Part shown: positions 1,830 to 60,201 of the stretch, one piece after another
Layout: every line of letters begins with the position of its first letter
Position numbering within the stretch: position 1 is the stretch's first letter
Assembly (NCBI GenBank): GCA_902461945.1
Contig: CABPZQ010000001.1
Span: 114,004 to 178,003, forward strand
Length of the DNA stretch: 64,000 nucleotides
Direction of reading: 5' to 3'
Source of the DNA: an uncultured bacterium
GTDB taxonomy: Bacteria; Cyanobacteriota; Vampirovibrionia; Gastranaerophilales; Gastranaerophilaceae
The notes under the pieces: model-generated
Database searches by the model: none
Told to the model about the DNA's origin: nothing
What the model saw: only the letters and a program-made list of their open reading frames with translations
Position numbers and translations under genes: made by a program

Positions 1830-2076
1830 GCATATATTTTAAATTATTTTTCAAATACTGTCAATCATTATAAAGAATTAGTATAAGGACTTTCGGATAT
1901 TCGATACCTTGAAGTGTTTAAATTTGCTGGAATTGAAGACACATCTTCAACACCAAGCAGCTGCTACAATTGTAACATTTATTAACAAACATTACTGTCT
2001 ATAGAGTTAGAAACCCTGCAAACTAGAGAATTTACCCCCTTACATTAAATGTGAGATGGTAAAAGGAGAGTTAAGC

Positions 2077-2189
2077 CTGCACGAGCAGAGGGCGAGAACA
2101 TAGTGGAATCCCGTTTAATGCGAATGCCGAGATGTAGACACTCTGAGGGCGTGTGCGACCGAAGAATCTTTTATTACTGTTATGTTTAT
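2077..2189 (+). repeat. dispersed GC-rich intergenic repeat, copy A (about 112 bp)
   Basis: About 88% identical to 51204..51314 in the same orientation. Contains the modules gagcagagggcga, cccgtttaatgcga and cgaagaatcttttattactgtt. Confidence 0.7.
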
Positions 2190-2202
2190 AAGAAGTTTTT
2201 GT

Positions 2203-3477
2203 TTATATTAAAGGACCGCCGTATTTTTTGTACAAATCCATAACTTCTTTTGGAAATTTTTCGCCTTTAACTAAGTATGAAAATGTTTCTGCAACAAATT
2301 CATTTGGCGAACTGGCAGCGTAACCAGATACCAATTTTGCTATTCTTTGCTCTTCCGGATTGGCAAGAAAATCTTTAAGCATTTTTGTTGGCTGCAGGTT
2401 AAACTGCTTATAGACATTCAAGGTGTGACATTGATCACATAAAGCATAAGACTTCTGATGCGCTAAGTGTCCTAACTCATGAAAAATATAACGCTCACTG
2501 CCAACAAATTTACCACGAAACATACCATCAAAACAGAATTTTTTACCCGTAATTCTATTGACTTCCTCAGCTAATCTGATAGCATGATTTGTAAGTTCTT
2601 TCTTTGGAAGCGCTAACATTTCATCCAGACTAAATACTTTATCATCAATGTGCAATAATCCATTCTTAGGTACAAAATTTTTATAGTAGAAATTGACAAC
2701 TTCTTCGGGATGACCTTTAAGAATATAGGTATTGAGCCAAATGTTGTGGGTAAGTAATTGTTTAAAATTACTTTTTTGAACAATGTTAAGCTTACCCTGT
2801 TTATATAAATTATAGTATTTGTTTGTTATGTTTATATATCCATTCTTGGTGTAAGTCTCGATTTTGTCATCTTGCAACCACTTTGGCAAATCTTCTTTTA
2901 TGTATTCATCAATATTGTTGAAATAATTTTTATTAATTATCAAGTCCTTATCTTTGACATACATTATCGCACTTGTATTATTTTCAATTGCTTTATAAAA
3001 CACATTATCAGGTAGAACAGCTTTGCCTTTGGTCTTGTTAACAACTTTAGACATTCCTTTATTAACCCAGTTTGCTATCTCCAAATTATCAACACTATAT
3101 GTTTTTATCCCAAAGTGTGTTTTAGCAAACTGAGCCGCCTCTTCAACTGTTTGCGCGGGTTTAAATTTAATATGCTTAGCGAGTTTTGTTGCCTCTTGTT
3201 TTGCCGCACCGATTTTACCTTTGATAGCTAGATATGCAATACCTCCAATAGTTGCAGCAATACCCAAATCTTTTAGAATTTTTTTAGTCTTACTAGTTGT
3301 TGATTTAACATTACCATTCACAATACTGTCCTGCGCAGGCTGTTGAAAATTGTTGTTATTAAACACAGAAAAACCATTTTGCGCAAAACTATTACCAAAA
3401 GATAAGCGTTTGTTGTATGGATTACCATACACATTCATATTTGGATTTGAATAATAACTTACAGAGTAAAATGACAC
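2203..3477 (-). CDS. membrane-anchored putative zinc metallopeptidase (HExxH...NEFVAE)
   Basis: 424 aa. N/Y/Q-rich N-terminus, one TM helix (LGIAATIGGIAYLAI), then FHELGHLAH followed about 50 aa later by NEFVAETF. This resembles gluzincin-type third-ligand motifs. Confidence 0.5.
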   Translation of the reverse strand: MSFYSVSYYSNPNMNVYGNPYNKRLSFGNSFAQNGFSVFNNNNFQQPAQDSIVNGNVKSTTSKTKKILKDLGIAATIGGIAYLAIKGKIGAAKQEATKLAKHIKFKPAQTVEEAAQFAKTHFGIKTYSVDNLEIANWVNKGMSKVVNKTKGKAVLPDNVFYKAIENNTSAIMYVKDKDLIINKNYFNNIDEYIKEDLPKWLQDDKIETYTKNGYINITNKYYNLYKQGKLNIVQKSNFKQLLTHNIWLNTYILKGHPEEVVNFYYKNFVPKNGLLHIDDKVFSLDEMLALPKKELTNHAIRLAEEVNRITGKKFCFDGMFRGKFVGSERYIFHELGHLAHQKSYALCDQCHTLNVYKQFNLQPTKMLKDFLANPEEQRIAKLVSGYAASSPNEFVAETFSYLVKGEKFPKEVMDLYKKYGGPLI

Positions 3478-3568
3478 TAGTACCTACTTTTTCTTTTTAT
3501 TTTCCACTTACTTATATAATAAACATTAACGCTAAAAAAATTGCTAATTAGGTTAATAAATTCCTAAT

Positions 3569-4939
3569 TTATTTATAAATAATTTCATTTAAACTATTCA
3601 TAATATTATAAATATCCTGCCTGATTTCATAAAACCCAAATCGGTACGTTATATTTGCCTGATTACTATAACAACCGTTTAAATATTTATAAATACCACG
3701 AAGATCCTTATACAAAGATTGAACTTTCATATTATCAGAAATCTTAGATAAATTCTTAGAAGCCAGATTAATAAAAAATTTATTAATCTCAATAATATCA
3801 TTTCTTAAATCGCTTTGATACTGAGAATTAACATCATGCCAGAGTTCAACATTTTGATTTGGAGCTACAGGGCTAAACATATTTTCATCATACGATTTAT
3901 TTTTAAACTTAAGCTTTGGTGGCTTTGTATTACTCAACGCAGTATCCAACAGGTGAAACATCATCAATTTTTCATTTCCCTGAAATTTTGTAATAACGTT
4001 ATTTTGATCAGCATTTAATGTTTCATCAAAAGACTCCGCTCTTCCGACAAGAGAAAAACATTTATATTTAGATTGCAATAACTCTTCTTCGCACAAATTA
4101 GAAAAAGTTCCTACAGATTCTAACAGCTCTTTATCAATATATTTTTCGGAATTTTCTATACTATCTATGGCTTTTAAGATATCTACAGAATATATATTTT
4201 TCTTTTTATTGCCCCAGATTAAATCGGATTTAAATAATTGATCAACCCCAAGTAAAGATTCTCCAGTAAAACAATAATCCGTCAGTATATAATTTTTCCC
4301 AGAATTTTCAATATCACTCCTGCTCAAATTGTTTGCCGACAAATATTTTAAAAATTTATCAAAACCAGCTTCTGTTTCAACTCTTTTTAAAAATAGTTTA
4401 TACGCATCAAGCTCCAAATTCCTACTATAAAACCTGCCTGCACTACTAAGCGGAATATTTTTAACATTTTCCTCGCCAATTTTTAACCCTAAAACTTTCC
4501 CTATAGTCGAAACTGATCTTCCAATAGGTACAACAACATAATTATTTTTCCCAAATCTGCTATCAAAAACTGTTTTCAAACAATCAGCCGCAAGATTATG
4601 AATTTCACCAATTCCATCATAATATAAATTCAAATTACAAAAATCATATTCATCACGAAGTCTGCTGCAATCTTTTGCAGACAACTTCATGTACTCTCCT
4701 GCAGTATAATTTTTAAAATTCGTCAACGGATTTCGAAATAATTGAATTAAATAATTATTCATCCATGAGCCTGTAAATTGAACATCTTTCACAGGTTCTG
4801 AAACCTGAGGATTCTCTCTATTTATATTTGACTTAGGGGGTACTGACTTATAGTATGAATTGCTATAAGTGTATATAACTGGGATTCTCATAAATATTTT
4901 AAATCCCGTAAAAAATAATTTTGCTATTATAAATAGCAA
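3569..4939 (-). CDS. hypothetical protein (456 aa); start may be internal (MRIPVIY...)
   Basis: Long ORF with a Y/S/N-rich N-terminus similar in composition to the neighbouring gene. No known motifs. Confidence 0.5.
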   Translation of the reverse strand: MLFIIAKLFFTGFKIFMRIPVIYTYSNSYYKSVPPKSNINRENPQVSEPVKDVQFTGSWMNNYLIQLFRNPLTNFKNYTAGEYMKLSAKDCSRLRDEYDFCNLNLYYDGIGEIHNLAADCLKTVFDSRFGKNNYVVVPIGRSVSTIGKVLGLKIGEENVKNIPLSSAGRFYSRNLELDAYKLFLKRVETEAGFDKFLKYLSANNLSRSDIENSGKNYILTDYCFTGESLLGVDQLFKSDLIWGNKKKNIYSVDILKAIDSIENSEKYIDKELLESVGTFSNLCEEELLQSKYKCFSLVGRAESFDETLNADQNNVITKFQGNEKLMMFHLLDTALSNTKPPKLKFKNKSYDENMFSPVAPNQNVELWHDVNSQYQSDLRNDIIEINKFFINLASKNLSKISDNMKVQSLYKDLRGIYKYLNGCYSNQANITYRFGFYEIRQDIYNIMNSLNEIIYK

Positions 4940-4974
4940 AATTATTTAATTTGTATTTTCTAAAAAATCTAATC

Positions 4975-6324
4975 CTACACTATACCTTGAGCCGACATAG
5001 CAGTTGCAAGTTTTTTAAAAGCTGCAATATTAGCCCCTGCAACATAATTTCCGCTGCAGCCATATGTATCTGCAGCCTCTTTACATGAGGTGAATATGTT
5101 AACCATAATTCTTTCTAATTTTGCCTCTACTTCTTCAAATGTATAATAAAATCTCATACTATTTTGAGACATTTCAATTGCTGAAGTTGCAACACCGCCG
5201 GCATTTGCTGCTTTTGCAGGAGCTACGAGAACACCATTTTCGAGCAAATAATTTGTAGCTTCCAGCGTACAAGGCATATTTGCACCTTCCCCAACAGCTA
5301 ATACCCCATTTTGAACTAATATTTTAGCTGAATTCAAAGTCAATTCATTTTGAGTGGCACAAGGTAATGCGATATCTGTTTTTATAGTCCAAACCGGAGA
5401 ATCATCTGATGTTTTTTCAATATAAACAGCTTCAGGATGAATATTTAAATATTCTTTTATTCTGCCTCTATTTACTTCCTTAATTTGTTTTATCGCTTCT
5501 ATATCAATGCCTTTTTCATCATAAATACAACCATTAGAATCACTCATTGCAACAACTTTTGCACCAAGTGCAGCTGCTTTTTGACAAGCATAAATTGCAA
5601 CATTACCGGAACCTGAAATAGTAACCGTTTTACCCTGGAGAGTATTATTGTTCGCTTTCAGCATTTCCCGCATGAAAAATATCAAACCATAGCCTGTGGC
5701 TTCTTTTCTAGCCAGAGAACCGCCGTAACAAACATCTTTACCTGTTAAAACTCCGCCCTCATAAGCATTTCTAATTCTCTTATATTGACCGAACAAATAA
5801 CCTATTTCTCTTCCGCCAACACCGATATCCCCTGCCGGAACATCAACATCCTGACCTATATGTCTGTATAATTCAGTCATAAAACTCTGGCAAAAGCGCA
5901 TAATTTCATTATCAGATTTTCCTTTAGGGTCGAAATCACTTCCCCCTTTAGCTCCACCAATTGGAAGACCGGTTAAAGCATTTTTAAAAATTTGTTCAAA
6001 ACCAAGAAATTTCATAATACTCTGGTTTACACTCGGATGAAAACGAAGCCCACCCTTGTACGGACCTAAAAGGGAGCTGAACTGAACTCTATACCCTCTG
6101 TTAACATTTACATTTCCATTATCATCAATCCAGGGAACTCTGAATGCAATAATTCTTTCAGGCTCTAACATCCTTTCAAGCAGTGCAATCTTTTCATACT
6201 CTTGATGTACATCCATCACAGGTTCTATAGATTTCAAAACCTCCTCAACTGCCTGTAAAAATTCAGGTTCATGCATATTCTTTTGTTCAGTCATTTCTAT
6301 AACTTTTTTAACATATTCATTCAT
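4975..6324 (-). CDS. gdhA: NADP-specific glutamate dehydrogenase
   Basis: GDH signatures LPIGGAKGGSDFDPKGKSD and the Rossmann motif GSGNVA. Start moved to MNEYVKK, which has an AGGCGG RBS 9 nt upstream. The ORF-track start at 6354 has no RBS. Confidence 0.9.
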   Translation of the reverse strand: MNEYVKKVIEMTEQKNMHEPEFLQAVEEVLKSIEPVMDVHQEYEKIALLERMLEPERIIAFRVPWIDDNGNVNVNRGYRVQFSSLLGPYKGGLRFHPSVNQSIMKFLGFEQIFKNALTGLPIGGAKGGSDFDPKGKSDNEIMRFCQSFMTELYRHIGQDVDVPAGDIGVGGREIGYLFGQYKRIRNAYEGGVLTGKDVCYGGSLARKEATGYGLIFFMREMLKANNNTLQGKTVTISGSGNVAIYACQKAAALGAKVVAMSDSNGCIYDEKGIDIEAIKQIKEVNRGRIKEYLNIHPEAVYIEKTSDDSPVWTIKTDIALPCATQNELTLNSAKILVQNGVLAVGEGANMPCTLEATNYLLENGVLVAPAKAANAGGVATSAIEMSQNSMRFYYTFEEVEAKLERIMVNIFTSCKEAADTYGCSGNYVAGANIAAFKKLATAMSAQGIV

Positions 6325-6495
6325 CGTTTCATACCGCCTAAAATTTATTAACATTTAATTACATATTATATTGTAAATTATACAATTGCAAATAAAAAGA
6401 TTCCCATATATTTACATAAAATTAATACAAATATTACCAACAAGCCACAATAAAAAAAATATATTATAATACTGAAAAAACAAAGAGGTTAGAAT

Positions 6496-7744: not shown

Positions 7745-7853
7745 AAAATAATGCAAAAAAATAATAACCTAAATTTGTAAAAAAATTTATTACCCGATTG
7801 TATTAACATAATAGCTAATTATTTTCCAATCATAAACTATATAATTATATATT

Positions 7854-9167
7854 ATGAATGAAGTTAATGAATTATTAAAAGCACTTGGAAAAGATACAAA
7901 ACTACAGCCGGATGAATGGACAAAAGAACATATATATACTTCCGGAAATAAAAAATGGATTGCTAATATTGTTCCATCACAACTCTTAAAAAGAGAGGTT
8001 AAAAGTGCAATAGAATCACTTATGACTCTGAATGAAAATAATATATTTTTTGACATATTCCCGGATAATGTTCAAACTCCTGATTACGGAGACAAATGGG
8101 GAGTCCATGCAAACTACATTGAAATTAATAATCGAGCAATAGCCGAAATGCATGGCAACAGAACAAAAAATGGAATTTTAAGTTCTATAAAAATCTTACC
8201 TGCAATTCCACCCTCTGCAAAAAGCTGGGCAAATTGCGTGATATTATCCCAAATATTTCCAAATATATTTGGAGATGGATACAACAAAGCTCCAAATGAA
8301 GAAAATTCCATATATGGAATCAAATTAAATGCTAACTATAGTGAAAATATTATAGACTTTGATATTGCAGACAAGATTTCCCCTGAAAAACAATTTAAAG
8401 CATTTAATCTGCTGGCAAATCTACATGGTCTAAAAACAGGTTTTCGCACAGTAATCTCTGCTGATCAAATAAAAATAGCTCATCCTAATAGCAATGATAA
8501 AAGTTTTGACTGGGATAATCCGGAACATCAGGAATTATTTATTAACGAACACGTCAAACTTATAAATCTGGGTTTTGAAGCCATTTTTATAGACTCGGCA
8601 AAACACATAGGCGGTTATGAAATGGAAAACTACGCAGGAGTCGGCGCATTACCGGGCTATGAACAAATGCAGTATATATTACACGAAATCAGAAAACGCT
8701 CAGGTAAAACTACTCTAAGTTTTGCAGGAGAAAAAAGTACCGGAGATTTTGAACGTTACAAAAATCTAGGTTTAACAACCGGAACAGCATTTATAGAACC
8801 TGAAAATTATGACGAAGTCAAAAACTGGTCTAAAAAACTCAAATACAATAGAGAATACGCCCCTGGTGTTGAAATCTCGAATGATAACGACGAGGGTGGA
8901 AGAAGTTTTGAAGATAGGCTAAAAAGAATCAATGCATCACTGTTTGGCTATGAATATCCAAGCGACAAACTGCCCAGTTTTATGCAAATGGAAGATATAT
9001 TCCCACTGCGATATGATACCAGCACACACCATTTAATGATGACCAATCCCTCATACTCCACTGATGGAAGTCCACAAAGCCATTGGGAAAACCTATTTAC
9101 AAAAGATGACGGAAAAAATTACAATTCAAAAGTTGCAGATTTATTTATTTACACCCTAAATTTATAA
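7854..9167 (+). CDS. hypothetical protein (437 aa), weak GH13-like motif
   Basis: LGFEAIFIDSAKHIGG loosely resembles alpha-amylase region II (GFRxDAAKH). No signal peptide. Confidence 0.45.
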   Translation: MNEVNELLKALGKDTKLQPDEWTKEHIYTSGNKKWIANIVPSQLLKREVKSAIESLMTLNENNIFFDIFPDNVQTPDYGDKWGVHANYIEINNRAIAEMHGNRTKNGILSSIKILPAIPPSAKSWANCVILSQIFPNIFGDGYNKAPNEENSIYGIKLNANYSENIIDFDIADKISPEKQFKAFNLLANLHGLKTGFRTVISADQIKIAHPNSNDKSFDWDNPEHQELFINEHVKLINLGFEAIFIDSAKHIGGYEMENYAGVGALPGYEQMQYILHEIRKRSGKTTLSFAGEKSTGDFERYKNLGLTTGTAFIEPENYDEVKNWSKKLKYNREYAPGVEISNDNDEGGRSFEDRLKRINASLFGYEYPSDKLPSFMQMEDIFPLRYDTSTHHLMMTNPSYSTDGSPQSHWENLFTKDDGKNYNSKVADLFIYTLNL

Positions 9168-9179
9168 ATTTAATAATTT

Positions 9180-9213
9180 CTGCGCAAGCATTTAAAAATA
9201 AATGCTTGCGCAG
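9180..9213. terminator. GC-rich hairpin between convergent genes
   Basis: ctgcgcaagcattt, 6-nt loop, aaatgcttgcgcag: a 14-bp perfect stem. The U-tract is weak. Confidence 0.5.
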
Positions 9214-9236
9214 AAGCCATCAAATATATAATTATC

Positions 9237-9527: not shown

Positions 9528-9584
9528 TTCACAAGTTAAATGTATATCAAATTTCTCAAGAAAAAAGAGCCCTTAGGCTCATAA

Positions 9585-9660
9585 TGGCTGGGGCGGAAGG
9601 ATTCGAACCTCCGAGATGGCTGGACCAAAACCAGCTGCCTTACCACTTGGCGACGCCCCA
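9585..9660 (-). tRNA. tRNA-Gln (anticodon TTG)
   Basis: Reverse complement reads TGGGGCGTCGCCAAGTGGTAAGGCAGCTGGTTTTGGTCCAGCC...GGTTCGAATCC...CGCCCCAGCCA. This is a cloverleaf with anticodon loop TTTTGGT and an encoded CCA end. The stem sequences closely resemble E. coli tRNA-Gln. Confidence 0.85.
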
Positions 9661-9779
9661 ATATTTAGTGGTCATACCTATATTCTATATGATAAAAATT
9701 TATTGTCAATAATTTATTTAAGAGATTTATATAAAAGTTTCCACTAACAATGATTAAATGTCAGATTACACCTCACTCA

Positions 9780-9990
9780 GACTTCAATCACCCAAATGAG
9801 ATTCCGAACAAAATTCAGAATAGCAGTGCTCGCCGGAGCGGATTTTGACAGACGTAAAACGTCCATCGCGAGAGCGCTGTTTAAGTAGTCGGACTGCCAG
9901 CAATCCAAAAACGGGGTATTTGCCACAGCGGTTTACTCATAACATCAACGTCTCAGCTCCGCAAGGGTCCTATCCCTCTGCTCATACAGA
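9780..9990 (-). repeat. GC-rich intergenic island carrying repeat modules
   Basis: Read on the minus strand it contains gtcattcctag, gagcagaggg, cccttgcggagctga and ttcggaatct. The same modules occur at 2077, 45700 and 51000-51700. Confidence 0.55.
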
Positions 9991-10051
9991 CTAGGAATGA
10001 CAATAAAATTATTTTTTAATCAATATTTGATAAAAATCATATATATACTTA

Positions 10052-10462
10052 TTATTTCAACGTCATACCAAATAAAATAGATTTTAATTTTTCTAAAGAC
10101 GTTTTCTTTTCTAAAGCCTCTGCAGCTAAGAGTAAATACGCCGTTTTATCATCACTAACTGCCAATTTCTGGATTATTTTATTTAACTTTGAATAATTTT
10201 GTTTAAACTTCAAAATGCTATCTGATGTCATATTTTCACAATTATTAACAGAATCTTCAAACGTAAATAAATCTTTATAAGAAACATTTAAAGCTTTACA
10301 AAGTTTTTCCAGAGTCTCTGCAGTTACAAAACTATCACCGGACTCTATACGTGCCAGCTGTCGAATATCTATATCCACAAGTTCTGACAAGCATTCTTGA
10401 GTCATATTATAATATTGTCTTAATAATTTTACCTGTTTACCGAACTGCTCTTTTAAAGGCAT
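10052..10462 (-). CDS. XRE-family HTH transcriptional regulator
   Basis: HTH: MTQECLSELVDIDIRQLARIESG. AGGAGA RBS. Divergent from the pilin-like gene at 10605. Confidence 0.75.
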   Translation of the reverse strand: MPLKEQFGKQVKLLRQYYNMTQECLSELVDIDIRQLARIESGDSFVTAETLEKLCKALNVSYKDLFTFEDSVNNCENMTSDSILKFKQNYSKLNKIIQKLAVSDDKTAYLLLAAEALEKKTSLEKLKSILFGMTLK

Positions 10463-10476
10463 TTAGCTATCTCCTG

Positions 10477-10502
10477 TCAATTAAATTATAAAATTTAATT
10501 GA
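10477..10502. promoter_or_regulatory. AT-rich palindrome in the divergent XRE/pilin intergenic region
   Basis: caattaaatt-ataa-aatttaattg: 10-bp perfect arms. Confidence 0.35.
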
Positions 10503-10604
10503 TTTTTAATAATGACAAATTATTTCATATTTCTAATATATTTATTGACTTATGAATTTAAATGTCATATTATATTAATCAATTAGCATACTTGGAGGTG
10601 AATT

Positions 10605-11306
10605 ATGAGTATAAATAATTGCAAAAAATCAGGTTTCACACTTGCAGAAGTTCTGATAACACTTGGAATTATAGGTGTAGTTGCAGCAATTACAATACCC
10701 GGGCTATTAACTACTCATAAAGCCCAAAGACTGAAATCACAGTTTTTAGAATCTTATTCAATAATCCAGCAAGCCTTCAAGCAAATGGAAGCTGATGATG
10801 TTTCATTAGACCCGAACACATATCCAACAGGAACATTTTATCAAACTTTTATGAACTACCTGCAAGCTCCTTTTGACTGTGGTAAATCAAACAACTCTTC
10901 AGGAAAGAAAATCTTACCCTGCTACGATTACTCAAACGCAGCAAAAACTTACAAGTCACTAGATGGGAAATCAACAGTTGCGTATAACTGGTTTGACGAT
11001 GGTCAAATCGCCCTACAGAATGGAACACTTTTACTCATTGAAAACTATACAAATATTAATCAATTATGGGTATCTGTGGATTTAAACGGTTTTAACAACC
11101 CGCCTAACAGATGGGGATATGATTTATTTACTTTTCAATTTATAGAGGGCGAGTTATTAACAATGGGAGATAAAAAAACGAAATACAACGATATTGAAAA
11201 ATACTGCAACTTAAAAGGTTCAGGAGCATTTAACGGAGCTGCTTGCGCACAATTAGCAAAAACAGACACTGATTATTTTAAAACTTTAGTCAGAACACTG
11301 CATTAA
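10605..11306 (+). CDS. prepilin-type N-terminal cleavage/methylation domain protein (pilin/pseudopilin-like)
   Basis: KSGFTLAEVLITLGIIGVVAAITIP class III signal. Paralog of 48379..49059, sharing DLFTFQF...KYCN...FNG(A/I)ACAQ. Confidence 0.8.
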   Translation: MSINNCKKSGFTLAEVLITLGIIGVVAAITIPGLLTTHKAQRLKSQFLESYSIIQQAFKQMEADDVSLDPNTYPTGTFYQTFMNYLQAPFDCGKSNNSSGKKILPCYDYSNAAKTYKSLDGKSTVAYNWFDDGQIALQNGTLLLIENYTNINQLWVSVDLNGFNNPPNRWGYDLFTFQFIEGELLTMGDKKTKYNDIEKYCNLKGSGAFNGAACAQLAKTDTDYFKTLVRTLH

Positions 11307-12026: not shown

Positions 12027-13167
12027 TCACTGACTTTGAAGCCTTTTCAAAAGTTTTAGCACCTCCTGATTTATCTAAAACAGTAACTTCATTTTCATCA
12101 GATGAAAAACCTATATCCGAACGGGAAATATCATTTGCAACAAGAAAATCACAGCCTTTTTTTTGAATTTTTTCTTTCGCATTTTGGAGCAGATTTTCAG
12201 ATTCTGCACAAAAGCCAACTACGATTTGCGAAGTTTTCTTTTCACACAAACCTTTTAATATATCAGGATTTTTGACTAACTCTAAAGACAATGTATCATC
12301 TGATGTTTTTTTCATTTTTTGTTCAGAATAATTTTTAACCCTGTAATCTGCAACTGCAGCAGCCATAATTATATAATTCGCATTTTTAAACTCATTATCT
12401 ATAGCCTTTTGCATATCAATCGCGGATTTTACATTTACGATTTTATATGGAGCTTCAAAATGCTTTGTAGTAATCAGAACAACTTCGGCTCCCATTTCAC
12501 ATGCACAATCAGCAATGGCTTTTCCCATCTTTCCGGATGAATAATTTGAAATATATCTAACAGGATCAATATCTTCAATAGTTCCACCAGCTGTTACAAC
12601 AATTTTTTTTCCCAGCAACACTTGTGAATAATTTAAAGATTCAACAACTGAATCATAAATTTTATCAATAGAACAAAGTCGCCCTTTACCAATATATCCA
12701 CAAGCCAAAAAACCACTTTCAGGCTCTAAAATTTCAACCCCTAAGCTTTTCAACTTTGAAATATTTTCTTGAACTATTTGATTATTCCACATATTACAAT
12801 TCATTGCAGGTGCAATAATCATTTTTTTTGAAAAAGCACAAGCAATCGATGTCAACAAGTTATCAGCAACTCCTTGAGCAATTTTAGAAATTGTATTAGC
12901 TGTAGCCGGAGCAATAACCATAACATCAGCTTCATCCGCTAGTGAAATATGCTCAGGCTTCCATTTTTTAACATCAAATTCTTGCACATAAACTTCATTT
13001 TGGCTTAAGTTTTGTAATGTAAGTTTAGTAACAAAATTCAATGAGTTTGGAGTTGCTACAACCTTTACATTTGCACCATTCTTTTTAAATTTTCTAATCA
13101 ATTCACAAATTTTATAAGCCGCAATTCCGCCAGTTATACCAACTAAGATTGTTTTACCATTAAGCAT
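11992..13167 (-). CDS. coaBC: bifunctional phosphopantothenoylcysteine decarboxylase/phosphopantothenate-cysteine ligase
   Basis: N-terminal flavoprotein domain (ILVGITGGIAAYK), a C-terminal CoaB domain, 391 aa. Confidence 0.9.
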   Translation of the reverse strand: MLNGKTILVGITGGIAAYKICELIRKFKKNGANVKVVATPNSLNFVTKLTLQNLSQNEVYVQEFDVKKWKPEHISLADEADVMVIAPATANTISKIAQGVADNLLTSIACAFSKKMIIAPAMNCNMWNNQIVQENISKLKSLGVEILEPESGFLACGYIGKGRLCSIDKIYDSVVESLNYSQVLLGKKIVVTAGGTIEDIDPVRYISNYSSGKMGKAIADCACEMGAEVVLITTKHFEAPYKIVNVKSAIDMQKAIDNEFKNANYIIMAAAVADYRVKNYSEQKMKKTSDDTLSLELVKNPDILKGLCEKKTSQIVVGFCAESENLLQNAKEKIQKKGCDFLVANDISRSDIGFSSDENEVTVLDKSGGAKTFEKASKSVIAREILEYICE

Positions 13168-13729: not shown

Positions 13730-14450
13730 AGATTGATTATACTATGAAGTATAAAAAAATTAAAGAATTTTAATACATAAAAATTATTATAAGAAATAAT
13801 AAATTTTCAGATTAGCAATCTGCAAATTTTATAAAAAAGGGGGTTCGGGGGTATAGCCCCTGATAACTCGAGCCATTCAATCAGGCGTGTTTTTCTTTTT
13901 CGGTTCTACTTTTTCTTTTTGCGTCGCAATCAAAAAGAAAAAGTGAACAAAAGGAAATTATTTAATGAAAATCATAATCTCAAATGAATACTTTAAATAA
14001 TTATCCTGCATACTCCATTTGAAATAAACGTATAACTTGACATATTGTGCTTTTATACCACATTTCTTTGACCGCAAAGAAACGTGGAACAAAGAAATTC
14101 TCTCCCATCGCTACGCTCACTAATAAATTGTAAATGCTCAACTTCAAAATGAGCAAACTCACTGAGAATAATCAAAACTGGATTGGAAATTTAAATTTTG
14201 CCCGTTCAAACATGCTCATTTTTGTTGTTGTTTCGCATAACATTTATTGTTCGCTTTGCGGAGGGCGAATTCTTAATAAAAATTCGCCTAATTTTTATAA
14301 ATAATAATAAATATAAATATATTTCATCTGCTTATAATAATTTTTATGTAATTATTAATTTTTCCTTAACTTTTAACTAAAATTTAAAAATCCGTTATAT
14401 AAATATATTGTTAGTTAAATTATATTCAGACTAAAAAAGGAGAGAAAATC

Positions 14451-41173: not shown

Positions 41174-41440
41174 CTACATATTATTTATAATTTTTTCGAG
41201 AGTGTTGAACCTTGAATGTAAATCTTTTATTTTGTTATACAGAACAGACTGGAGACATTCACAATCATATGGCTCCAAATATGAAGGTTCCCGCATACAA
41301 GTAGTTAATATTCGAGCAAGACTCTCTACTACTATAAATTTATATGCAATAAAATTTAGTTTTGATTTTAAAAATTTTGTATCTGTTTGCTTATTCATAT
41401 TCAATCTATTATCCTTAATCTTTATTAAAATTAATCTCAT
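41174..41440 (-). CDS. small hypothetical protein (start uncertain)
   Basis: The ORF-track start lies inside the palindrome. An internal start MNKQTD at 41398 is possible. Confidence 0.3.
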   Translation of the reverse strand: MRLILIKIKDNRLNMNKQTDTKFLKSKLNFIAYKFIVVESLARILTTCMREPSYLEPYDCECLQSVLYNKIKDLHSRFNTLEKIINNM

Positions 41441-41484
41441 CTATGCATAATAATTCTCATATATGAGAATTATTATACATAGAT
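41439..41484. promoter_or_regulatory. 46-bp near-perfect palindrome
   Basis: atctatgcataataattctcata|tatgagaattattatacatagat: 23-bp arms with 1 mismatch. Lies between divergent small genes. Confidence 0.5.
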
Positions 41485-41518
41485 ATGAATATATAGTCAA
41501 TTATGTTATAATATTGCT

Positions 41519-45689: not shown

Positions 45690-45800
45690 TTCAGGAATTC
45701 CAAACTTAGTGCGGAATCTGTTCTTATTGTCATGCTGATTTATTTCAGCATCTATTTTACCAAATTAACCCTTGAAACAAGTTCAGGGGGACAATTTATT
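45690..45800 (+). repeat. intergenic repeat modules
   Basis: agtgcggaatct and the hairpin cccttgaaacaagttcaggggg match 51010..51065 (tttcggaatct, ccctgaaacaagttcagggtg). Confidence 0.55.
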
Positions 45801-48317: not shown

Positions 48318-48361
48318 AAACTACCACTAACTAGTAGTTAACTACTAGTTAGTGGTAGTTT
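48318..48361. promoter_or_regulatory. perfect 44-bp palindrome (putative operator) between the divergent XRE and pilin-like genes
   Basis: aaactaccactaactagtagtt|aactactagttagtggtagttt: 22-bp perfect arms centred on GTTAAC, 18 bp upstream of the pilin ATG at 48379. Confidence 0.6.
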
Positions 48362-49129: not shown

Positions 49130-50572
<1,443 letters not shown>

Positions 50573-50574
50573 TT

Positions 50575-50967
50575 ATGAAATTAAAAATTATTACGCAAGA
50601 AAGAGTTGTTTTTGACGAAGAAGTAGATGAAATCTATTCAAAGGGAGTAGATGGCGAATTCGGAATACTAAAAGGACATATCCCAATGATGACAGCTCTA
50701 GATATAGGTGTCACACGCGTTACTCAAGGAAGTGAAGTAAAAATGTTCACCACAATGGGAGGCATATTACAATTCAAAGATGAAGAATGTTTGATACTGA
50801 CAACCTTAGCGGAACCCGGCGAAGAAATCGACGAAGCGCGAGCAAGAGAAGCACTTGAAAAAGCGAGAAGAAAACTAAGAGAAGCTAACGCAAGAATGGA
50901 TGCAAAACGAGCCGAAGCTGCAATTGCTAGAGCAGAAGCTCGTTTAAAAGCAAAATTGTCAAAATAA
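50575..50967 (+). CDS. atpC: F0F1 ATP synthase subunit epsilon
   Basis: N-terminal beta-sandwich and C-terminal helical region. Starts 3 bp after atpD. Confidence 0.9.
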   Translation: MKLKIITQERVVFDEEVDEIYSKGVDGEFGILKGHIPMMTALDIGVTRVTQGSEVKMFTTMGGILQFKDEECLILTTLAEPGEEIDEARAREALEKARRKLREANARMDAKRAEAAIARAEARLKAKLSK

Positions 50968-51203
50968 ATATAAAAAACAGTTGAGTTCAGGAAACGTAAT
51001 TTTCTGTTCCTACTCGGAGTTTCGGAATCTTACCAGCACTAAGACCCTGAAACAAGTTCAGGGTGACAGTTCTAGCTATGTTTAAAATGCTATATAAGTT
51101 CCTGTTTCAGCATCTTTTTTGTTGAGTAATCAGGGAGCTCATTAGTGGAATGTCGCGTCGGCAGAAGCCTCCTCGCAATGACGGCTATTTCGTCATTCTA
51201 AAT

Positions 51204-51314
51204 CTGCACGAGCAGAGGGCGAAACGTAGTGGAGTCCCGTTTAATGCGAGTGCAGAGATGTCATTCTGAGGGAGCAGGCGACCGAAGAATCTTTTATTAC
51301 TGTTCTGTTTATTA
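51204..51314 (+). repeat. dispersed GC-rich intergenic repeat, copy B
   Basis: About 88% identical to 2077..2189. Confidence 0.7.
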
Positions 51315-51432
51315 GATACTTCGGCTAAAGCCTCAGTATGACAGTCGGGTTGATTTTGAGGACAAACATGTGTTCTACTGTATCCGTCATTCTGAGCGAA
51401 TGCGAAGAATCTTTTTACACTTTTCACCCTAA

Positions 51433-51630
51433 CCTTGCGGAGCTAAATTTGCTGGTGTTGTGAGCAAATATTTGGTAGCAAAATGCCACGTGCGTAGCAC
51501 CCTTGCGGAGCTGAATTTGCTGGTGCTGTGAGCAAATATTTGGTAGCATACCTACGTGCGTAGCACCCTTGCGGAGCTGAATTTGCTGGTGTTGTGAGCA
51601 AATAATTGGTAGCAAAATGCCACGTGCAAC
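51433..51630 (+). repeat. tandem repeat, about 3 units of 66-68 bp
   Basis: Unit ccttgcggagct(a/g)aatttgctggtg(t/c)tgtgagcaaatatttggtagca...cgtgcgtagcac, repeated at 51433, 51501 and 51567. Confidence 0.75.
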
Positions 51631-51680
51631 GGGCGCAGTCATTCCGAATTTAGTTCGGAATCTCTTGGTTGGACACTTAG

Positions 51681-51713
51681 ATTGTCATCCTGAACTTGCT
51701 TCAGGATGACAAT
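51681..51713. other. perfect 14-bp-stem hairpin
   Basis: attgtcatcctgaa-cttgc-ttcaggatgacaat. Confidence 0.5.
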
Positions 51714-51753
51714 TATCCGTTAGGTTCTTTTAATTATCCAAACAAACTAAAAC

Positions 51754-52419
51754 CTACTCTTGAACAGCTTTTGAACTATTTGTCATATTTTTCGCTAAAA
51801 GCAAACTATCTGCCGCTTTCGCTCTTTGATTATTAATAAAGCTATCTGTTAGCAATCCGATACCATAACCGGCAAGAGCAAGCATTGGACAAGCAACGGC
51901 CAATTGTTTAATCTTAAACAACTCTGCAAACTTTCCACCATTAGAAAGTTGAACACACTTTCCCGCAATTGGAGCAGTGAATCCTAAAAGAGCAAGTGTT
52001 TTCTTTGACACATCAGTTTCTTTATAAGGATTACCAAATTCTGTCAATGCCATATCTTTATTATTGAAATCTAAAGAATAATTTTTTAATTCCTGATTGA
52101 CATCATCGGCTTTATAAGGTAGCTTTTGAGATTCCTGTTCAACAGTTTTAGCAGACAAGTTTTGAGAAACTGAGTTATCCGCAAACAACACTTCCGGAGC
52201 AGCATTATTTCCAGTATTTACTTTTAAAAACTCGGGCATCATAAAATCATCTTCATAATTATTATTCACGCTCTGCAAAGAATTCAATGGAGCTGTATTA
52301 AAAATTGACGAATTATCAGACAAACCATTCACCGGTTGTTGTAACTGTCCGATATTCAGATTATTCCCAAACGGTTGAGCAAATCCGACATTAAAAGTTT
52401 TATCCAATCCTACTGACAT
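51754..52419 (-). CDS. hypothetical protein (221 aa) with C-terminal hydrophobic segment
   Basis: N/Q/S-rich N-terminal region. C-terminal MLALAGYGIGLL. Confidence 0.45.
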   Translation of the reverse strand: MSVGLDKTFNVGFAQPFGNNLNIGQLQQPVNGLSDNSSIFNTAPLNSLQSVNNNYEDDFMMPEFLKVNTGNNAAPEVLFADNSVSQNLSAKTVEQESQKLPYKADDVNQELKNYSLDFNNKDMALTEFGNPYKETDVSKKTLALLGFTAPIAGKCVQLSNGGKFAELFKIKQLAVACPMLALAGYGIGLLTDSFINNQRAKAADSLLLAKNMTNSSKAVQE

Positions 52420-52561
52420 AATATAACCTTTCTATACACATAACTTTCCACTTATATAAAGTATTTTTAAATACAAAAATTGCAAAATATGTAATATTTT
52501 TAAAACTTTGTAACATAATATTTTTATTTACTGAAACCTGCTTTTATGGTATATCCAGAAT

Positions 52562-53661: not shown

Positions 53662-53665
53662 AATA

Positions 53666-54502: not shown

Positions 54503-54561
54503 ACTATACCTTTTACCAAATAAAGTAAAACAAATACTATACAAAAATTGCCCATATAAAA

Positions 54562-55593: not shown

Positions 55594-55634
55594 AAAATAA
55601 TAATACCAGAAATAAAACTTCAGGACATTAAAAT

Positions 55635-56876: not shown

Positions 56877-56912
56877 ATTAAACCTCTATTTCTATAAAAT
56901 TAAAATCTATAA

Positions 56913-57242
56913 TCATTTTAGCAAAAAAGTTCTTATATATTTATAAGCTAATATTAATTCTTCTTCCTTAAGAATATCTAACATAGATATTATTTCAGAT
57001 TTTAAATCTGTAAAATTCTGTAAATGATAAAATTCAAACAAATCTTTTGGTTCAACCGATAAAGCACGCGAAAATCTATCAATTAATTCTGGAGATGGAA
57101 AATTTTTACCACTTTCAATACAACTAATATGTTTATCATCAACATTTACCAATTCGGCAAGTTGAGCCTGTGTGTAATGCATTTTTTTGCGGTATTCTTT
57201 AATTTTACGTCCAAATAATACTTTTATATTTGCCATTTCCAC
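56913..57242 (-). CDS. XRE-family HTH transcriptional regulator
   Basis: HTH YTQAQLAELVNVDDKHISCIESG. GAGGTG RBS. Divergent from the pilin-like gene at 57385. Confidence 0.7.
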   Translation of the reverse strand: MEMANIKVLFGRKIKEYRKKMHYTQAQLAELVNVDDKHISCIESGKNFPSPELIDRFSRALSVEPKDLFEFYHLQNFTDLKSEIISMLDILKEEELILAYKYIRTFLLK

Positions 57243-57384
57243 CTCGTTTTCATTTTACATAACCAGCCATGGTATTGGAATTAAAATATAGGTAAAAATT
57301 TGACAAAAACTTACCTGATAAGTATAATAATTTACGTAGAACGTAATTTTCCTTAATATATTTACCTAACGTATAGGAGAGAAA

Positions 57385-58137
57385 ATGAATAAGAAACAAC
57401 CAAAAAAATTAGCTTTTACACTTGCAGAAGTTTTAATTACATTAGGTATAATTGGAATTGTTGCAGCCTTGAGCATTCCAACACTAATTTCTGCTTATCA
57501 AAAGAAAACCACTGCTCTTGAAGTAAAAAAAGCCTACACAGAACTTAATCAGATATTAAAAATGGCAATCGCAGACTACGGCGAACCTCTCGGCTGGCAA
57601 TATTATGGAGCTGATGAATTGCCACAGTGGGTTCAAACATATTTTGTACCATATGTTAACGGTGCACAACATAAAGCTTGTAATTCAAACGAAAGATGTT
57701 TCGGACTTGCTTTGCCATTTCCTTTACATTTTAAAAAACCAGGTTCTGTTAATACAATGGTTGGGCAATATGTAGTATCAAAACTTGGCAGTCCTGTTGC
57801 CTATGCCTTCTTTAGGTACCCATCGCCATATGACAAAGTAACCAGAGTAAAAGCCTACATACGAAATCCTAAAAAATATGCTATGCTTGGCAAGGATGTA
57901 TTCACTTTTATACTAACAACGGCAGACGAAAATCCGACATTCAAACCTTACGGCTATGGTACTCTCGGATCTTACGGAATGAGCACAAAAGATAGAAACA
58001 CTCTACTTGGAACAGGATGGGGAGGATGCAATTCCAAAGCAAGCGGTTCCGGTTACTTTGGTCCAGGAGATGCCTGTGCCGCCGTCATAATGATGGATGG
58101 CTGGAAGATTGCCAAAGATTACCCATGGACAAAATAA
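57385..58137 (+). CDS. prepilin-type N-terminal cleavage/methylation domain protein
   Basis: KKLAFTLAEVLITLGIIGIVAALSIP. Shares KDVFTF with the other paralogs. Confidence 0.75.
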   Translation: MNKKQPKKLAFTLAEVLITLGIIGIVAALSIPTLISAYQKKTTALEVKKAYTELNQILKMAIADYGEPLGWQYYGADELPQWVQTYFVPYVNGAQHKACNSNERCFGLALPFPLHFKKPGSVNTMVGQYVVSKLGSPVAYAFFRYPSPYDKVTRVKAYIRNPKKYAMLGKDVFTFILTTADENPTFKPYGYGTLGSYGMSTKDRNTLLGTGWGGCNSKASGSGYFGPGDACAAVIMMDGWKIAKDYPWTK

Positions 58138-58157
58138 AAAATAGATTTTAAAGAATA

Positions 58158-58190
58158 AAAAGAGAACTAAGATTTATAGTTCTCTTTTTA
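58158..58190 (+). terminator. rho-independent terminator
   Basis: aaagagaacta-agattta-tagttctcttt, then ttta. Confidence 0.7.
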
Positions 58191-58216
58191 TAATTATAAT
58201 TTGATTTACGCAAGTT

Positions 58217-59575
58217 CTATTTTTCTTCCAACCCCTTACGTTTGTAGAATTCTTCAATGAAACCAGTATTAAAATTTCCGCTCATAAAGACTTCATCTTC
58301 AATAATTGCCTGATGGAATGGAATAGTTGTTTCAACACCTGTTACAACGTATTCTTTCAAAGCTCTGTACATTCTTCTGCGAGCTTCGTTTCTATCACGT
58401 CCCCAACAAATCAATTTTCCAATCATTGAATCGTAGTACGGAGGAATTGTATAATCTTGATAAACATGAGAATCCACTCTTATACCAAAACCTCCAGGTG
58501 CTAAATAACCTGTAATTTGTCCAGGGTTTGGCATAAAATTCTTAGCTGGATTTTCAGCATTGATACGGCATTCAATAGCATGACCTTTTAAGTGAATATC
58601 ATCTTGAGTGTAACTTAATTTTTCACCAGCCGCAACTAGGATTTGTTCACGAACCAAATCAACACTTGAAATCATTTCTGTTACACAGTGTTCAACCTGA
58701 ATTCTTGTATTCATTTCCATGAAATACCAGCTGCCATCATGATCAAGTAAGAATTCACAAGTTCCGGCCCCTTCATAGTTAATCGCTTTAGCTGCACGAA
58801 CAGCTGCGGCTCCCATTTCTTTTCTTGTTTCTTCATTGATAGCCGGAGATGGGGCTTCTTCCAACAATTTTTGGTGACGTCTTTGAATAGAACAATCTCT
58901 TTCTCCTAAGTGGACAACGTTACCAAAACTGTCACCCAATATTTGAACCTCAATATGACGAGGATTTTCTAAGTATTTTTCAGCATATACATCAGGATTT
59001 CCAAAGAAATTTTTAGCTTCAGTCTGGCAAAGTTCCATATTAACTTTAACATCTTCATCACTGCGGCAAATTCTCATACCTTTACCGCCGCCACCGGCTG
59101 TAGCTTTCAAAATAATCGGATAACCAACTTTATTTGCAAAAGCCTGAACATCTTCAACCGTATGAACAATTCCTGTACCCGGAGTAACTGGAACATTATT
59201 TTCAATCATTGTTTTACGAGCTGTAGCTTTATCTCCCATTTTCTTCATAGCCTCGGAAGATGGACCAATAAATTTAATACCTTGCTGTTCACAGATTTCT
59301 ACAAAATCTGCTCTTTCAGACATAAATCCATATCCAGGGTGGATTGCATCAGCACCTGATACCATAGCTGCTGACATTATTGCAGGAATGCTTAAATAAC
59401 TATCAGCACTTTTTGCAGGTCCAATACAATAAGCCTCTGTTGCTAACCTAACATGAAGAGAATTTGCATCTGCCTGTGAATAAATAGCAACCGTAGGAAT
59501 ACCCAATTCTCTACATGCCCTGATAATCCTTACAGCTATTTCTCCCCTATTCGCAATTAATACTTTTCTAAACAT
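58217..59575 (-). CDS. accC: acetyl-CoA carboxylase biotin carboxylase subunit
   Basis: ATP-grasp fold and the conserved motifs MNTRIQVEHCVTE and KATAGGGGKGMR. Confidence 0.95.
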   Translation of the reverse strand: MFRKVLIANRGEIAVRIIRACRELGIPTVAIYSQADANSLHVRLATEAYCIGPAKSADSYLSIPAIMSAAMVSGADAIHPGYGFMSERADFVEICEQQGIKFIGPSSEAMKKMGDKATARKTMIENNVPVTPGTGIVHTVEDVQAFANKVGYPIILKATAGGGGKGMRICRSDEDVKVNMELCQTEAKNFFGNPDVYAEKYLENPRHIEVQILGDSFGNVVHLGERDCSIQRRHQKLLEEAPSPAINEETRKEMGAAAVRAAKAINYEGAGTCEFLLDHDGSWYFMEMNTRIQVEHCVTEMISSVDLVREQILVAAGEKLSYTQDDIHLKGHAIECRINAENPAKNFMPNPGQITGYLAPGGFGIRVDSHVYQDYTIPPYYDSMIGKLICWGRDRNEARRRMYRALKEYVVTGVETTIPFHQAIIEDEVFMSGNFNTGFIEEFYKRKGLEEK

Positions 59576-59646
59576 TTTTCAAATATCCCTTATCAAATTA
59601 GAAAGTGAACAGATATAACCGTTCACTTTCTAATATTTTAAAATTA

Positions 59647-60099
59647 TTATTCTACATACATAAGAACTTGACCAAATTCAACAGGTTGTCCATCCTCAAC
59701 ACAAATTTCAAGGACTTTACCGGCAACCTCTGCTTTAATTTCGTTCATCATTTTCATAGCTTCAACAATACAAACCACATCGCCATTTTTCACAGTATCA
59801 CCAACAGACACAAAAGGAGCTGCATCCGGAGAAGGTGATTTGTAGAAAGTTCCAACCATTGGAGATGTAATTGGAGTACCTTTTTTAGCAGGTGCTGCCG
59901 GCGCACTTGCTGCAGGCTGAGCTGACGGAGCTGAAGCCGGAGCAGAAGGAGCTGCAGCTACAACTTGAGGAGCTGCTGAAACAATAACATCTTTTCTTAA
60001 TGTAATAGCTTGTTCTCCATCTTCTAGAGAAATTTCTGTCAAGCCAGTTTCAGATATAATTTTTGCTAATTTTTCTATATAATCTGTTTCAAATTTCAT
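59647..60099 (-). CDS. accB: acetyl-CoA carboxylase biotin carboxyl carrier protein
   Basis: EAMKMMNEI biotinylation motif. Ala/Pro linker. Confidence 0.9.
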
Positions 60100-60201
60100 A
60101 ATTTGCCTTTCCTATAAGTCAAAACACAAGATTTTTCGGATTGTGTTAATTTAAAAAAGCGAAAAATCTTACAAAAGTATCGCCTCAGAATGACATCAAG
60201 A

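Follow-up and report, generated by a model that had tools for sequence, protein, structure and literature searches.

We analysed a 64,000-nt stretch of DNA (the window, to the whole of which all coordinates refer) from a human-gut bacterium of the Gastranaerophilales (Melainabacteria/Vampirovibrionia), in which short sequence modules recur between genes. AtpC of the nearest species representatives was 92-95% identical. About 20 kb of each related genome was compared; the compared DNA stretches are labelled with L numbers (e.g. L182), and L126 is an IMG/VR contig. The original prediction had listed seven modules at five loci, and all were found at the coordinates it reported. Locus 1 lies between two minus-strand genes, and its long copy A1 is antisense to both. 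Locus 2 contains element B and lies between the stop codon (10052) of an XRE-type helix-turn-helix (HTH) gene and the promoter (9709-9682) of tRNA-Gln (9585-9660, minus strand), the sole RNA gene detected in the window. Locus 4 separates the convergent genes atpC and a 221-aa open reading frame (ORF), and includes a second long copy, A2. Locus 5 is in the efp-accB spacer. The islands had been described as GC-rich. This was true of 2077-2193 (46%), 9799-10001 (49%), and 51013-51710 (45%; window 32.5%), but not of 45692-45792 (38%) or 60126-60194 (30%) as wholes.

Recurrence of the modules was evaluated using 100 dinucleotide-preserving shuffles of the window, and most modules exceeded their shuffled counts. 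GTCATTCYGAG with up to one mismatch had 8 matches vs. 1.16 expected, and 0/100 shuffles reached 8. Similarly, CCCTTGCGGAGCTGA (up to three mismatches) had 5 matches vs. 0.41 expected (0/100 shuffles), TCGGAATCT (exact) had 3 vs. 0.27 (0/100), GAGCAGAGGG (up to one mismatch) had 4 vs. 0.84 (1/100), and CTGAAACAAGTTCAG (up to three mismatches) had 7 vs. 2.56 (2/100). CGAAGAATCTTTT was significant solely as three exact copies; with up to two mismatches it had 7 matches vs. 4.99 expected. The ~88% identity claimed for the long copies was confirmed (2077-2193 vs. 51204-51316; ~14 differences over 117 columns). Locus 5, reported as a 12-nt fragment, is actually a complete long-loop hairpin (60129-60194, minus strand). 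Locus 4 also comprises a tandem array (51433-51627) in which a unit of 66-68 bp is repeated 2.9 times, and the sequence shared by loci 2 and 4 is a homology of ~55 nt, not 15. The window contains at least 14 whole or half hairpin units.

A single hairpin design, present whole or as a half, accounts for five of the seven modules. Its basic unit of ~26 nt has an unpaired YGTC head, a stem of 8-9 bp, a 5-nt loop, and an unpaired CTN/CCN tail; the stem starts with A-T (or A-C), followed by three variable pairs and then a conserved inner part. The design occurs in a perfect form and a G.A form. Examples of the perfect form, GTCA(Y)NNN-GAA-loop-TTC-N'N'N'(R)TCT, are at 51638-51663, 51042-51067 (minus strand), 51684-51710, and 45729-45753, and the two modules originally termed hairpins are units of this form. 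In the G.A form, GTCATNNN-GAG...CGA-AN'N'N'ATCT, tandem G.A/A.G mismatches replace the inner stem and close a GC-rich tip of GCGNAGC type. Examples are at 51260-51292, 51314-51342 (minus strand), 51386-51412, and 60129-60194 (minus strand), with degenerate copies at 51147-51182 (minus strand) and 2134-2169. The G.A form has gtcattcYgag as one arm and cgaagaatctttt as the other; (t/g)tcggaatct represents a 3' arm. Presumably only one strand is structured in the G.A form, because the mismatches would become pyrimidine-pyrimidine on the opposite strand.

The base preceding GTC in Gastranaerophilales copies was T in 16, A in 7, G in 4, and C in 1 of 28 perfect-type units, and T in 5, C in 4, and A in 1 of the G.A-type units; among the IMG/VR matches listed, T and C together accounted for 94/109 and 160/165. 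Stems had the pattern ATNNNGAA/TTCN'N'N'AT (8 bp). Their first two bases were AT in 17 and AC in 11 of the 28 local units, and AT in 87/109 and 161/165 of the IMG/VR matches listed. Canonical 26-nt units had loops of 5 nt (CTTGT, TTTAG, CTAGA, CTTGA), from which long-loop and nested copies differ. Tails were CTC, CTG, CTT, CTA, CCC, or CCA, with CCA a minority (e.g. L307).

Covariation was examined by a search with head, inner stem, and tail fixed and 4+4 stem positions free. The ~1 Mb of Gastranaerophilales DNA yielded 22 distinct sequences, 17 of which were fully paired and represented 8 different stems. The fraction paired was 0.84, vs. a mean of 0.57 and a maximum of 0.71 for shuffled partners; the five unpaired matches are chance, mostly in ORFs. 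IMG/VR gave a similar result: 12 of 15 sequences were fully paired, with at least 10 stems (0.95 vs. 0.71 for shuffled partners). These findings demonstrated that the units keep their structure while the stem sequence varies through compensatory changes. Almost all hairpins were within the non-ORF 10.7% of the DNA, in both orientations. Gene context was convergent for 12, tandem for 23, and divergent for 5, compared with 17%, 52%, and 31% of intergenic bp. There was no strand bias in tandem context (13 sense vs. 10 antisense).

Judged by sequence and predicted fold, the hairpins match the superfamily of CGTC-tagged repetitive extragenic palindromes (REPs; Di Nocera, De Gregorio & Rocco 2013, BMC Genomics 14:522; PMC3733652). 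In the passages of that paper that describe the superfamily, these REPs carry a CGTC head (often TGTC; CCTC is also allowed) and end in a short unpaired tail of consensus CCA; the stem measures 8-9 bp, with A-T as its nearly invariable start, and encloses a loop of 4-5 nt. They have no dedicated transposase and are extragenic, mainly between unidirectional and convergent ORFs. Members include Neisseria dRS3 (CGTC-1) and Rickettsia RPE-6/RPE-4 (CGTC-1/-4), and the phyla named in these passages are Proteobacteria, Chlorobi, Bacteroidetes, Spirochaetes, and Thermotogae, not Melainabacteria/Cyanobacteria. Measured against this description, the window hairpins agree in head, A-T stem of 8-9 bp, loop length, and the presence of a short tail, which is more often CTN than CCA. 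They are likewise extragenic and mostly in unidirectional or convergent settings, with several stem sub-types per genome and no transposase gene attached. Unlike in the described superfamily, an A-C start variant (GTCAC...GTCT) that departs from the A-T rule is common here, and the passages do not describe G.A-type, long-loop, or nested forms. "REP/MITE-like" (MITE, miniature inverted-repeat transposable element) was an appropriate term for the hairpins. These are short imperfect palindromes, nearly all outside ORFs, that face either way, form mosaic clusters, and vary from one close relative to another. They correspond to a known element, an outcome that the original prediction had itself named as refuting it. 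We conclude that the modules are probably DNA-level, non-coding hairpin repeats of the CGTC/TGTC-tagged REP type, arranged in mosaic arrays of this Gastranaerophilales genome that resemble bacterial interspersed mosaic elements (BIMEs) and Neisseria intergenic mosaic elements (NIMEs). The hairpin modules are a known repeat type in a new phylum, and no new RNA.

The family had been thought specific to this lineage. Such restriction applied to the composite arrangements only; for the hairpins it was contradicted by the same head, inner stem, and loop in >200 IMG/VR stretches, and by the fit to the published superfamily. The pattern GTCATTCTGAG-N3-14-CGAAGAATC was present in at least 120 IMG/VR stretches (~1-2 expected by chance, as estimated from collection size), and GTCA-N4-GAACTTGTTTC-N4-TCT in 81 (~1-2 expected by chance). 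Among the matches listed, loops were typically GCGNAGC or GGAGCGNAGCGAC, as in the window, and carrier contigs had 28-69% GC. PLSDB plasmids queried with the canonical G.A hairpin gave partial chance matches and nothing else. The junction shared by A2 and element B (GTCATN6TCTGYAYGAGCAGAGGG) had no match in 185,579 species representatives, and the core of the A-module (the gagcagaggg module of the long copies) had none in Joint Genome Institute (JGI) metagenome contigs. When the islands were compared by blastn with ~1 Mb of DNA from 58 related genomes, short hairpins and one A-module were recovered and nothing else. Full-text literature searches with hairpin sequences and peptide strings returned primers and noise only. 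L126 has a form absent from the window: five G.A-type hairpins head-to-tail with a period of ~88 bp and conserved spacers (8533-8915).

Comparison with relatives showed that the arrays are gained, lost, and inverted, and change in tandem copy number, between close relatives. Three alleles, including that of the window, were found at the tRNA-Gln locus, where flanks are 88-92% identical. L307, L311, and L313 have TGTCATTCCGAACTTGGTTCGGAATC alone, i.e. an intact 26-nt hairpin. In the window, the 5' arm contains an insertion with an imperfect ATTCY duplication. In L310, two hairpins enclose ~150 nt of cargo of another kind, in which a G.A hairpin and a leader-like unit are present. The A2 junction is as in element B (GTCATTCT / AAATCTGCACGAGCAGAGGG ... 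GATGTCATTCT / GAGG); both inserts are flanked by duplicates of ATTCY or GTCATTCY, and the ends of A2 are palindromic (ATCTGCAC...GTGCAGAGAT). A second type of filling was seen in L182, where the hairpin GTCATGCCGAA-CTAGA-TTCGGCATCT has two unfilled copies (12462 and 13690). At 12239-12314 the same hairpin, with the same flanking repeat, carries a 50-nt module in place of its loop. This module and the window A-module are homologous (83% identical); their 16-nt loop is conserved, and one pair differs by a compensatory change (GGG/CCC to GTG/CAC). A further loop insert, and shorter modules in the loop position (CAGCACGAACGAYAGWGAGTGCG), were found repeatedly in L182, L184, and L152. Cargo of 50-180 bp is flanked or enclosed by hairpins. 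These findings showed that the hairpins act as landing and joining points: other short palindromic modules and cargo are found in the loop, between two copies, or within the 5' arm, the last with an ATTCY duplication of 5-8 nt. Units occur in both orientations with short linkers, as in the tail-to-tail doublet at 51260-51342, and L182 has an array of 1.1 kb in which the units alternate and the linkers are conserved. That inserted copies can persist is evident from two hairpins whose positions are conserved in four rumen species.

At the atpC locus, L005 was identical to the window, and L003/L006 were 98.4-98.8% identical to it. The tandem array has 4 units in L003, at least 4 in L006 (where an assembly gap splits it), and 2.9 (3) in the window. 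The terminal hairpin of L003/L006 has an inverted loop (GCAAG) and is followed by a 40-nt extra segment with a duplicated arm. The sister lineage (L001, L002, L004), whose flanks are ~94% and ~90% identical, has 141 bp instead of 785 bp and lacks the ~650-bp block. At its right edge, the site of 51684-51710 holds another hairpin of the family (GTCTTGCTGAACGTGTTTCAGCCTCT, minus strand). A1 is 97% conserved in the lineage without the A2 block, and its hairpin head is intact there, indicating that A2 is the later copy. L316/L317 have an intact head (GTCATTCTGAGG) at the A1 site, with an 8-nt indel in the module loop. The efp-accB allele of L220 (sequence GTCATTCTGAGG, 37 nt, CCCGAAGAATCT) differs from the window in loop and 3' arm.

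Arrays of this kind have a precedent in NIMEs, in which dRS3 inverted repeats flank repeat sequence (RS) units (Bentley et al. 2007, PLoS Genet 3:e23; PMC1797815). According to Bentley et al., they were not observed outside Neisseria. We found NIME-type arrays, i.e. hairpins flanking units of 50-150 bp, in the window (51013-51710), in L310, and in L182 (4300-5400 and 12150-14000). Several properties are common to NIMEs and the present arrays: repeat units of 50-150 bp from many families are bordered by short palindromes of ATTCC type, array positions are fixed while related genomes differ in unit number and length, GC content peaks at the palindromes, and the arrays have pilin-related sequence embedded in them. 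However, the phylum and the cargo families are different, the arrays are far smaller, no counterpart was found here to the proposed link of dRS3 with a recombinase or phage, and some cargo is inside the hairpin (arm or loop) and not just between hairpins. dRS3 is ATTCCCN8GGGAAT, whereas the hairpins here are ATTCCGAA-N5-TTCGGAAT and variants; NIME is thus an analogue, and the hairpins are not members of it. REP/BIME elements and REPINs with RAYT (PMC2817692, PMC3116915, PMC3333891) are also short imperfect palindromes with a conserved unpaired foot, extragenic, in doublets and in alternating orientation with linkers, and GCGNAGC-type loops are known in enterobacterial REPs. They differ from the present hairpins in having GTAG rather than a YGTC head, and no RAYT was found in the loci examined here. 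RAYT-linked REPs are species-specific, whereas the hairpins described here are common to very different genomes. The small dispersed repeats (SDRs) of Nostocaceae, reportedly described by Elhai et al. in 2008, are hairpin-forming units of 21-27 nt; they show mobility between close relatives and, by inserting into one another, build nested mosaics in a genome of the cyanobacterial lineage. We liken SDRs to the window hairpins by description only, not by sequence. SDRs are found only in Nostocaceae, according to the relevant passage of PMC5861425.

The following mechanism may account for these observations. The hairpins would form when DNA is single-stranded or extruded as a cruciform, with the G.A form stable on presumably one strand only, and would be recognised in trans by an enzyme encoded elsewhere. 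By analogy with Neisseria dRS3, candidate enzymes are an HUH/RAYT-like nuclease or a Piv/IS110-like recombinase. Arrays could grow by recombination between hairpins and by slippage, and copies behind genes probably serve also as terminator or stabiliser hairpins, as a by-product. Several observations weigh against a DNA-level REP identity. No transposase or recombinase was found, and no protein family recurs beside the hairpins in ~3 Mb of loci (~20 kb per related genome), which agrees with published accounts of CGTC REPs. At the atpC locus, the "empty" allele does not correspond to a clean excision: 20 nt are replaced by ~660 nt. Element B has no terminal inverted repeats, and its ATTCY duplication is imperfect (ATTCC/ATTCT). 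The tail consensus is CTN, in contrast to the CCA given in the superfamily description. In ~9 of 13 independent cases, the hairpin closest to a stop codon lies in sense orientation, which leaves room for a role at the RNA level.

Part of the cargo is related to prepilin-like genes, which is the least expected element of the finding. The 66-bp unit of the atpC array (minus strand, GGTGCTACGCACGT start) has its homologue at the 5' ends of prepilin-like (N_methyl) genes, in the form of a 60-nt unit of the leader-coding part; 31/35 nt match at the unit start. Genes of related species, and that of at least one Brachyspira protein, contain 0-2 tandem copies of the 60-nt unit, and the peptidase-site motif is thereby duplicated; the encoded leader is ...GFTLAE-GATHVDxPPxxxKx-GFTLAE-VLITLGIIG.... 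Such genes were found in L151 (12955), L152 (4790-4900), L166 (6690-6800), L173 (6733), and L188 (7600-7720). The module cccttgcggagctga is the antisense of the FSSAE-G junction of the leader unit, with copies in element B (9915-9968) and the L310 cargo. In the window, the array units are frameshifted and no gene body follows; the two N_methyl genes of the window itself are without the 60-nt unit. The leader architecture had 1256 matches in metagenome proteins, Brachyspira included, and many of the best matches were ORFs of 50-116 aa; these short entries cover just the 5' part (proteins P0074-P0193). No description of leader-unit duplication was found in the searchable literature. Within 1 kb of a prepilin-like 5' end were 17 of 56 hairpins, vs. 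11.4% expected, and at the level of clusters only 7 of 27. Hairpin clusters adjoin prepilin-like genes in L182 (4300-5400 and 12150-14000), L152 (4000-4800), and the window (9799-11306), and an XRE-type HTH gene lies between cluster and prepilin-like gene twice (window and L152). A perfect 44-bp palindrome, AAACTACCACTAACTAGTAGTT/AACTACTAGTTAGTGGTAGTTT, is located directly upstream of the N_methyl gene preceding atpD (48318-48361); it is operator-like and unrelated to the hairpin family.

It is possible, though not likely, that the atpC block and element B are decayed prepilin-like 5' ends with their upstream regions, in which the hairpins are passengers. The homology of the tandem unit and CCCTTGCGGAGCTGA to the GATHVD..PP....GFTLAE leader unit, the many metagenome ORFs that are short 5' fragments of such genes, the hairpin clusters upstream of N_methyl genes in L182 and L152, and the proximity of 17/56 hairpins to prepilin-like 5' ends are consistent with this explanation. 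However, the array is not followed by any remnant of a mature pilin domain (VLITLGIIG...), frameshifts accompany its period of 66-68 nt, just two of the seven modules are covered, and the enrichment by cluster is weak. Decayed prepilin genes are moreover compatible with REP-type hairpins as a source of cargo, and not an alternative to them. We also considered that the hairpins may be primarily RNA elements (intrinsic or bidirectional terminators, or stabilisers of mRNA 3' ends or intercistronic regions) made similar by RNA selection and gene conversion. We regard this as unlikely. A nested insertion or a hairpin-cargo-hairpin allele requires a process at the DNA level, the same sequence occurs across phyla and GC contents, and the conserved unpaired YGTC head and tail play no part in termination. 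A1 is antisense to both neighbours, and the copies in tandem context (13 sense vs. 10 antisense) have no strand bias. A terminator scan of 50900-51800 found just 2 sites vs. 0.8 expected; terminator-like copies are at 51099-51120, 51260-51300, and 51386-51418, and many others are antisense or without a T-run. Enrichment at convergent and 3' positions, the T-runs after several window copies (51292, 51412, and 51120), the plain CTGAAA...TTTCAG terminator behind atpC in L198 (the closest species), the sense copy inside the efp-accB operon, and the statement in the cited part of PMC3733652 that REPs are generally thought to be transcribed all argue for an RNA-level role, which is likely for some copies. 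Such a role is insufficient alone, because the head and tail, the antisense copies, and the nesting remain outside its reach.

A structured-RNA family, as suggested in the original prediction, is very improbable. Element B and/or the A-module would be lineage-specific small RNA genes, with the shared motifs as helices. Against Rfam 15, tRNA-Gln alone passed the gathering score, and the islands gave, by E-value, sub-threshold snoRNA/miRNA noise. Single-sequence folding of element B, A1, A2, and the array revealed no convincing excess stability (z-scores -1.4 for B, and -1.6 and +1.4 for two A copies), and no promoter was found for B. The best candidate was element B (9799-10001), with 49% GC in a 32% GC genome and adjoining tRNA-Gln, but it is replaced by a bare 26-nt hairpin in relatives with 88-92% identical flanks, and a small RNA gene is largely refuted for B. 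For the A-module, 83% conservation in the distant L182, the compensatory pair, and the 16-nt loop are favourable; however, there are three long copies in ~1 Mb of related genomes and none in JGI metagenomes, and the host hairpins are different. Chance or base composition of GC-rich islands can practically be dismissed as the origin of the shared motifs. The shortness of several modules speaks for it, as does CGAAGAATCTTTT, whose count with mismatches does not exceed chance, but the shuffle controls, the 117-bp duplicate at 88%, the covariation, and the recurrence in other genomes refute this explanation. Hammerhead ribozyme (by eye), kink-turn/C-D box, integron attC, DNA uptake sequence, CRISPR, and IS110 bridge RNA were dropped as identities because core motifs, sequence constancy, spacer variability, or 2-nt core duplication were absent.

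The REP-type hairpins would extend the CGTC/TGTC-tagged superfamily and NIME-like arrays to Melainabacteria, the non-photosynthetic sister lineage of cyanobacteria. The presence of the same 26-nt hairpin, with compensatory stem variants, in very different environmental genomes sharpens the question of what mobilises REPs without a transposase, and three clean allelic series (bare, interrupted, and hairpin-cargo-hairpin) fix the insertion points in the hairpin. For annotation, the GC-rich islands are not small RNA genes, and spurious ORFs or false small proteins arise from them. One such ORF of 80 aa (51185-51427, minus strand), wholly inside the repeat mosaic, is almost certainly spurious. A more speculative and rather improbable idea is that the arrays are a NIME-like recombination system of gut Melainabacteria, and perhaps Brachyspira, tied to the prepilin-like (N_methyl) family. 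The hairpins and the 60-nt leader unit (FTLAE-GATHVD..PP....-FTLAE) would then be recombination handles. If so, the handles would shuffle or duplicate 5' ends and promoters of surface pseudopilin genes, giving rise to the 5' gene fragments in metagenomes and to leader copy-number variants.

The mosaic after atpC begins on the plus strand with a solo 3' half-hairpin (...TTTCGGAATCT, 51013-51030), at the left edge of the block absent from sister-lineage alleles. It is followed by the perfect-type hairpin GTCACCCTGAACTTGTTTCAGGGTCT (51042-51067, minus strand), which is identical in L151 and near-identical in L152, L177, L182, and L188. A further solo 3' half-hairpin, TTTCAGCATCT, then T6 (51099-51120, plus strand), was read from the sequence. 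Next come a degenerate G.A-type hairpin (GTCATTGCGAGGAGG...CGACGCGACATTCC; 51147-51182, minus strand) and a plus-strand 5' half-hairpin (CGTCATTCT, 51191-51199), then AAAT. The A-module copy A2 (51204-51259, plus strand) has the junction type of element B, GTCATTCY / NNN TCTGYAYGAGCAGAGGG. The G.A-type hairpin GTCATTCTGAGGGAGCAGGCGACCGAAGAATCT (51260-51292, plus strand), a form seen in many IMG/VR copies, continues into a 24-nt tail to 51316 that is common to A1, and makes a tail-to-tail doublet with the G.A-type hairpin GTCATACTGAGGCTTTAGCCGAAGTATCT (51314-51342, minus strand). Another G.A-type hairpin, GTCATTCTGAGCGAATGCGAAGAATCT (51386-51412, plus strand), precedes the tandem array (51433-51627, minus strand), each unit of which starts with GGTGCTACGCACGT. 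The block closes with the perfect-type hairpin GTCATTCCGAATTTAGTTCGGAATCT (51638-51663, plus strand) and the fully palindromic hairpin GTCATCCTGAA-CTTGC-TTCAGGATGAC (51684-51710).

At locus 1, the composite copy A1 (2077-2193, plus strand) consists of a loop-type A-module (2077-2133, plus strand; GAGCAGAGGG at 2083-2092), a degenerate G.A-type hairpin (2134-2169, plus strand) with its head mutated to GTAGACACTCTGAGG, and the 24-nt plus-strand tail shared with A2. A1 adjoins the gene of a metallo-beta-lactamase (MBL)-fold hydrolase (1029-1829, minus strand), which has matches to Pfam PF23023 (Anti-Pycsar Apyc1) and Lactamase_B in precomputed annotation. Element B (9799-10001, minus strand) is a TGTC-tagged hairpin interrupted by an insert of ~172 nt. 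Its head is GTCATTCC (10001-9994, minus strand); the insert, on the same strand, starts with TAGTCTGTATGAGCAGAGGG and ends with ...GCACTGCT, and the remainder of the hairpin is ATTCTGAATTTTGTTCGGAATCT (9821-9799, minus strand). Within B, a unit at 9915-9968 (plus strand) shares homology with the 66-bp tandem unit of locus 4 and holds CCCTTGCGGAGCTGA antisense. Locus 3 contains a headless degenerate hairpin, gaATTCC...GGAATct (45695-45719, plus strand; read from the sequence), the perfect-type hairpin GTCATGCTGATTTATTTCAGCATCT (45729-45753, plus strand), and a slightly degenerate perfect-type hairpin, GTCCCCCTGAACTTGTTTCAAGGGTT (45767-45792, minus strand). The long-loop G.A-type hairpin of the efp-accB spacer (60129-60194, minus strand) is sense, and its 3' arm is degenerate (CCGAAAAATCT).

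Other repeats and GC-rich stretches of the window are separate from these loci. A 720-bp intergenic region contains short GC-rich stretches at 13840-13900 (gggggttcgggggtatagcccctg...) and 14240-14290 (...cgctttgcggagggcgaattc...) that do not conform to the hairpin design. Two inverted repeats are unrelated to the family: one at 9162-9231, between convergent genes, has 33-nt arms (85% identity) and a 4-nt spacer, and the other at 41432-41491 has 30-nt arms (87% identity) and no spacer.

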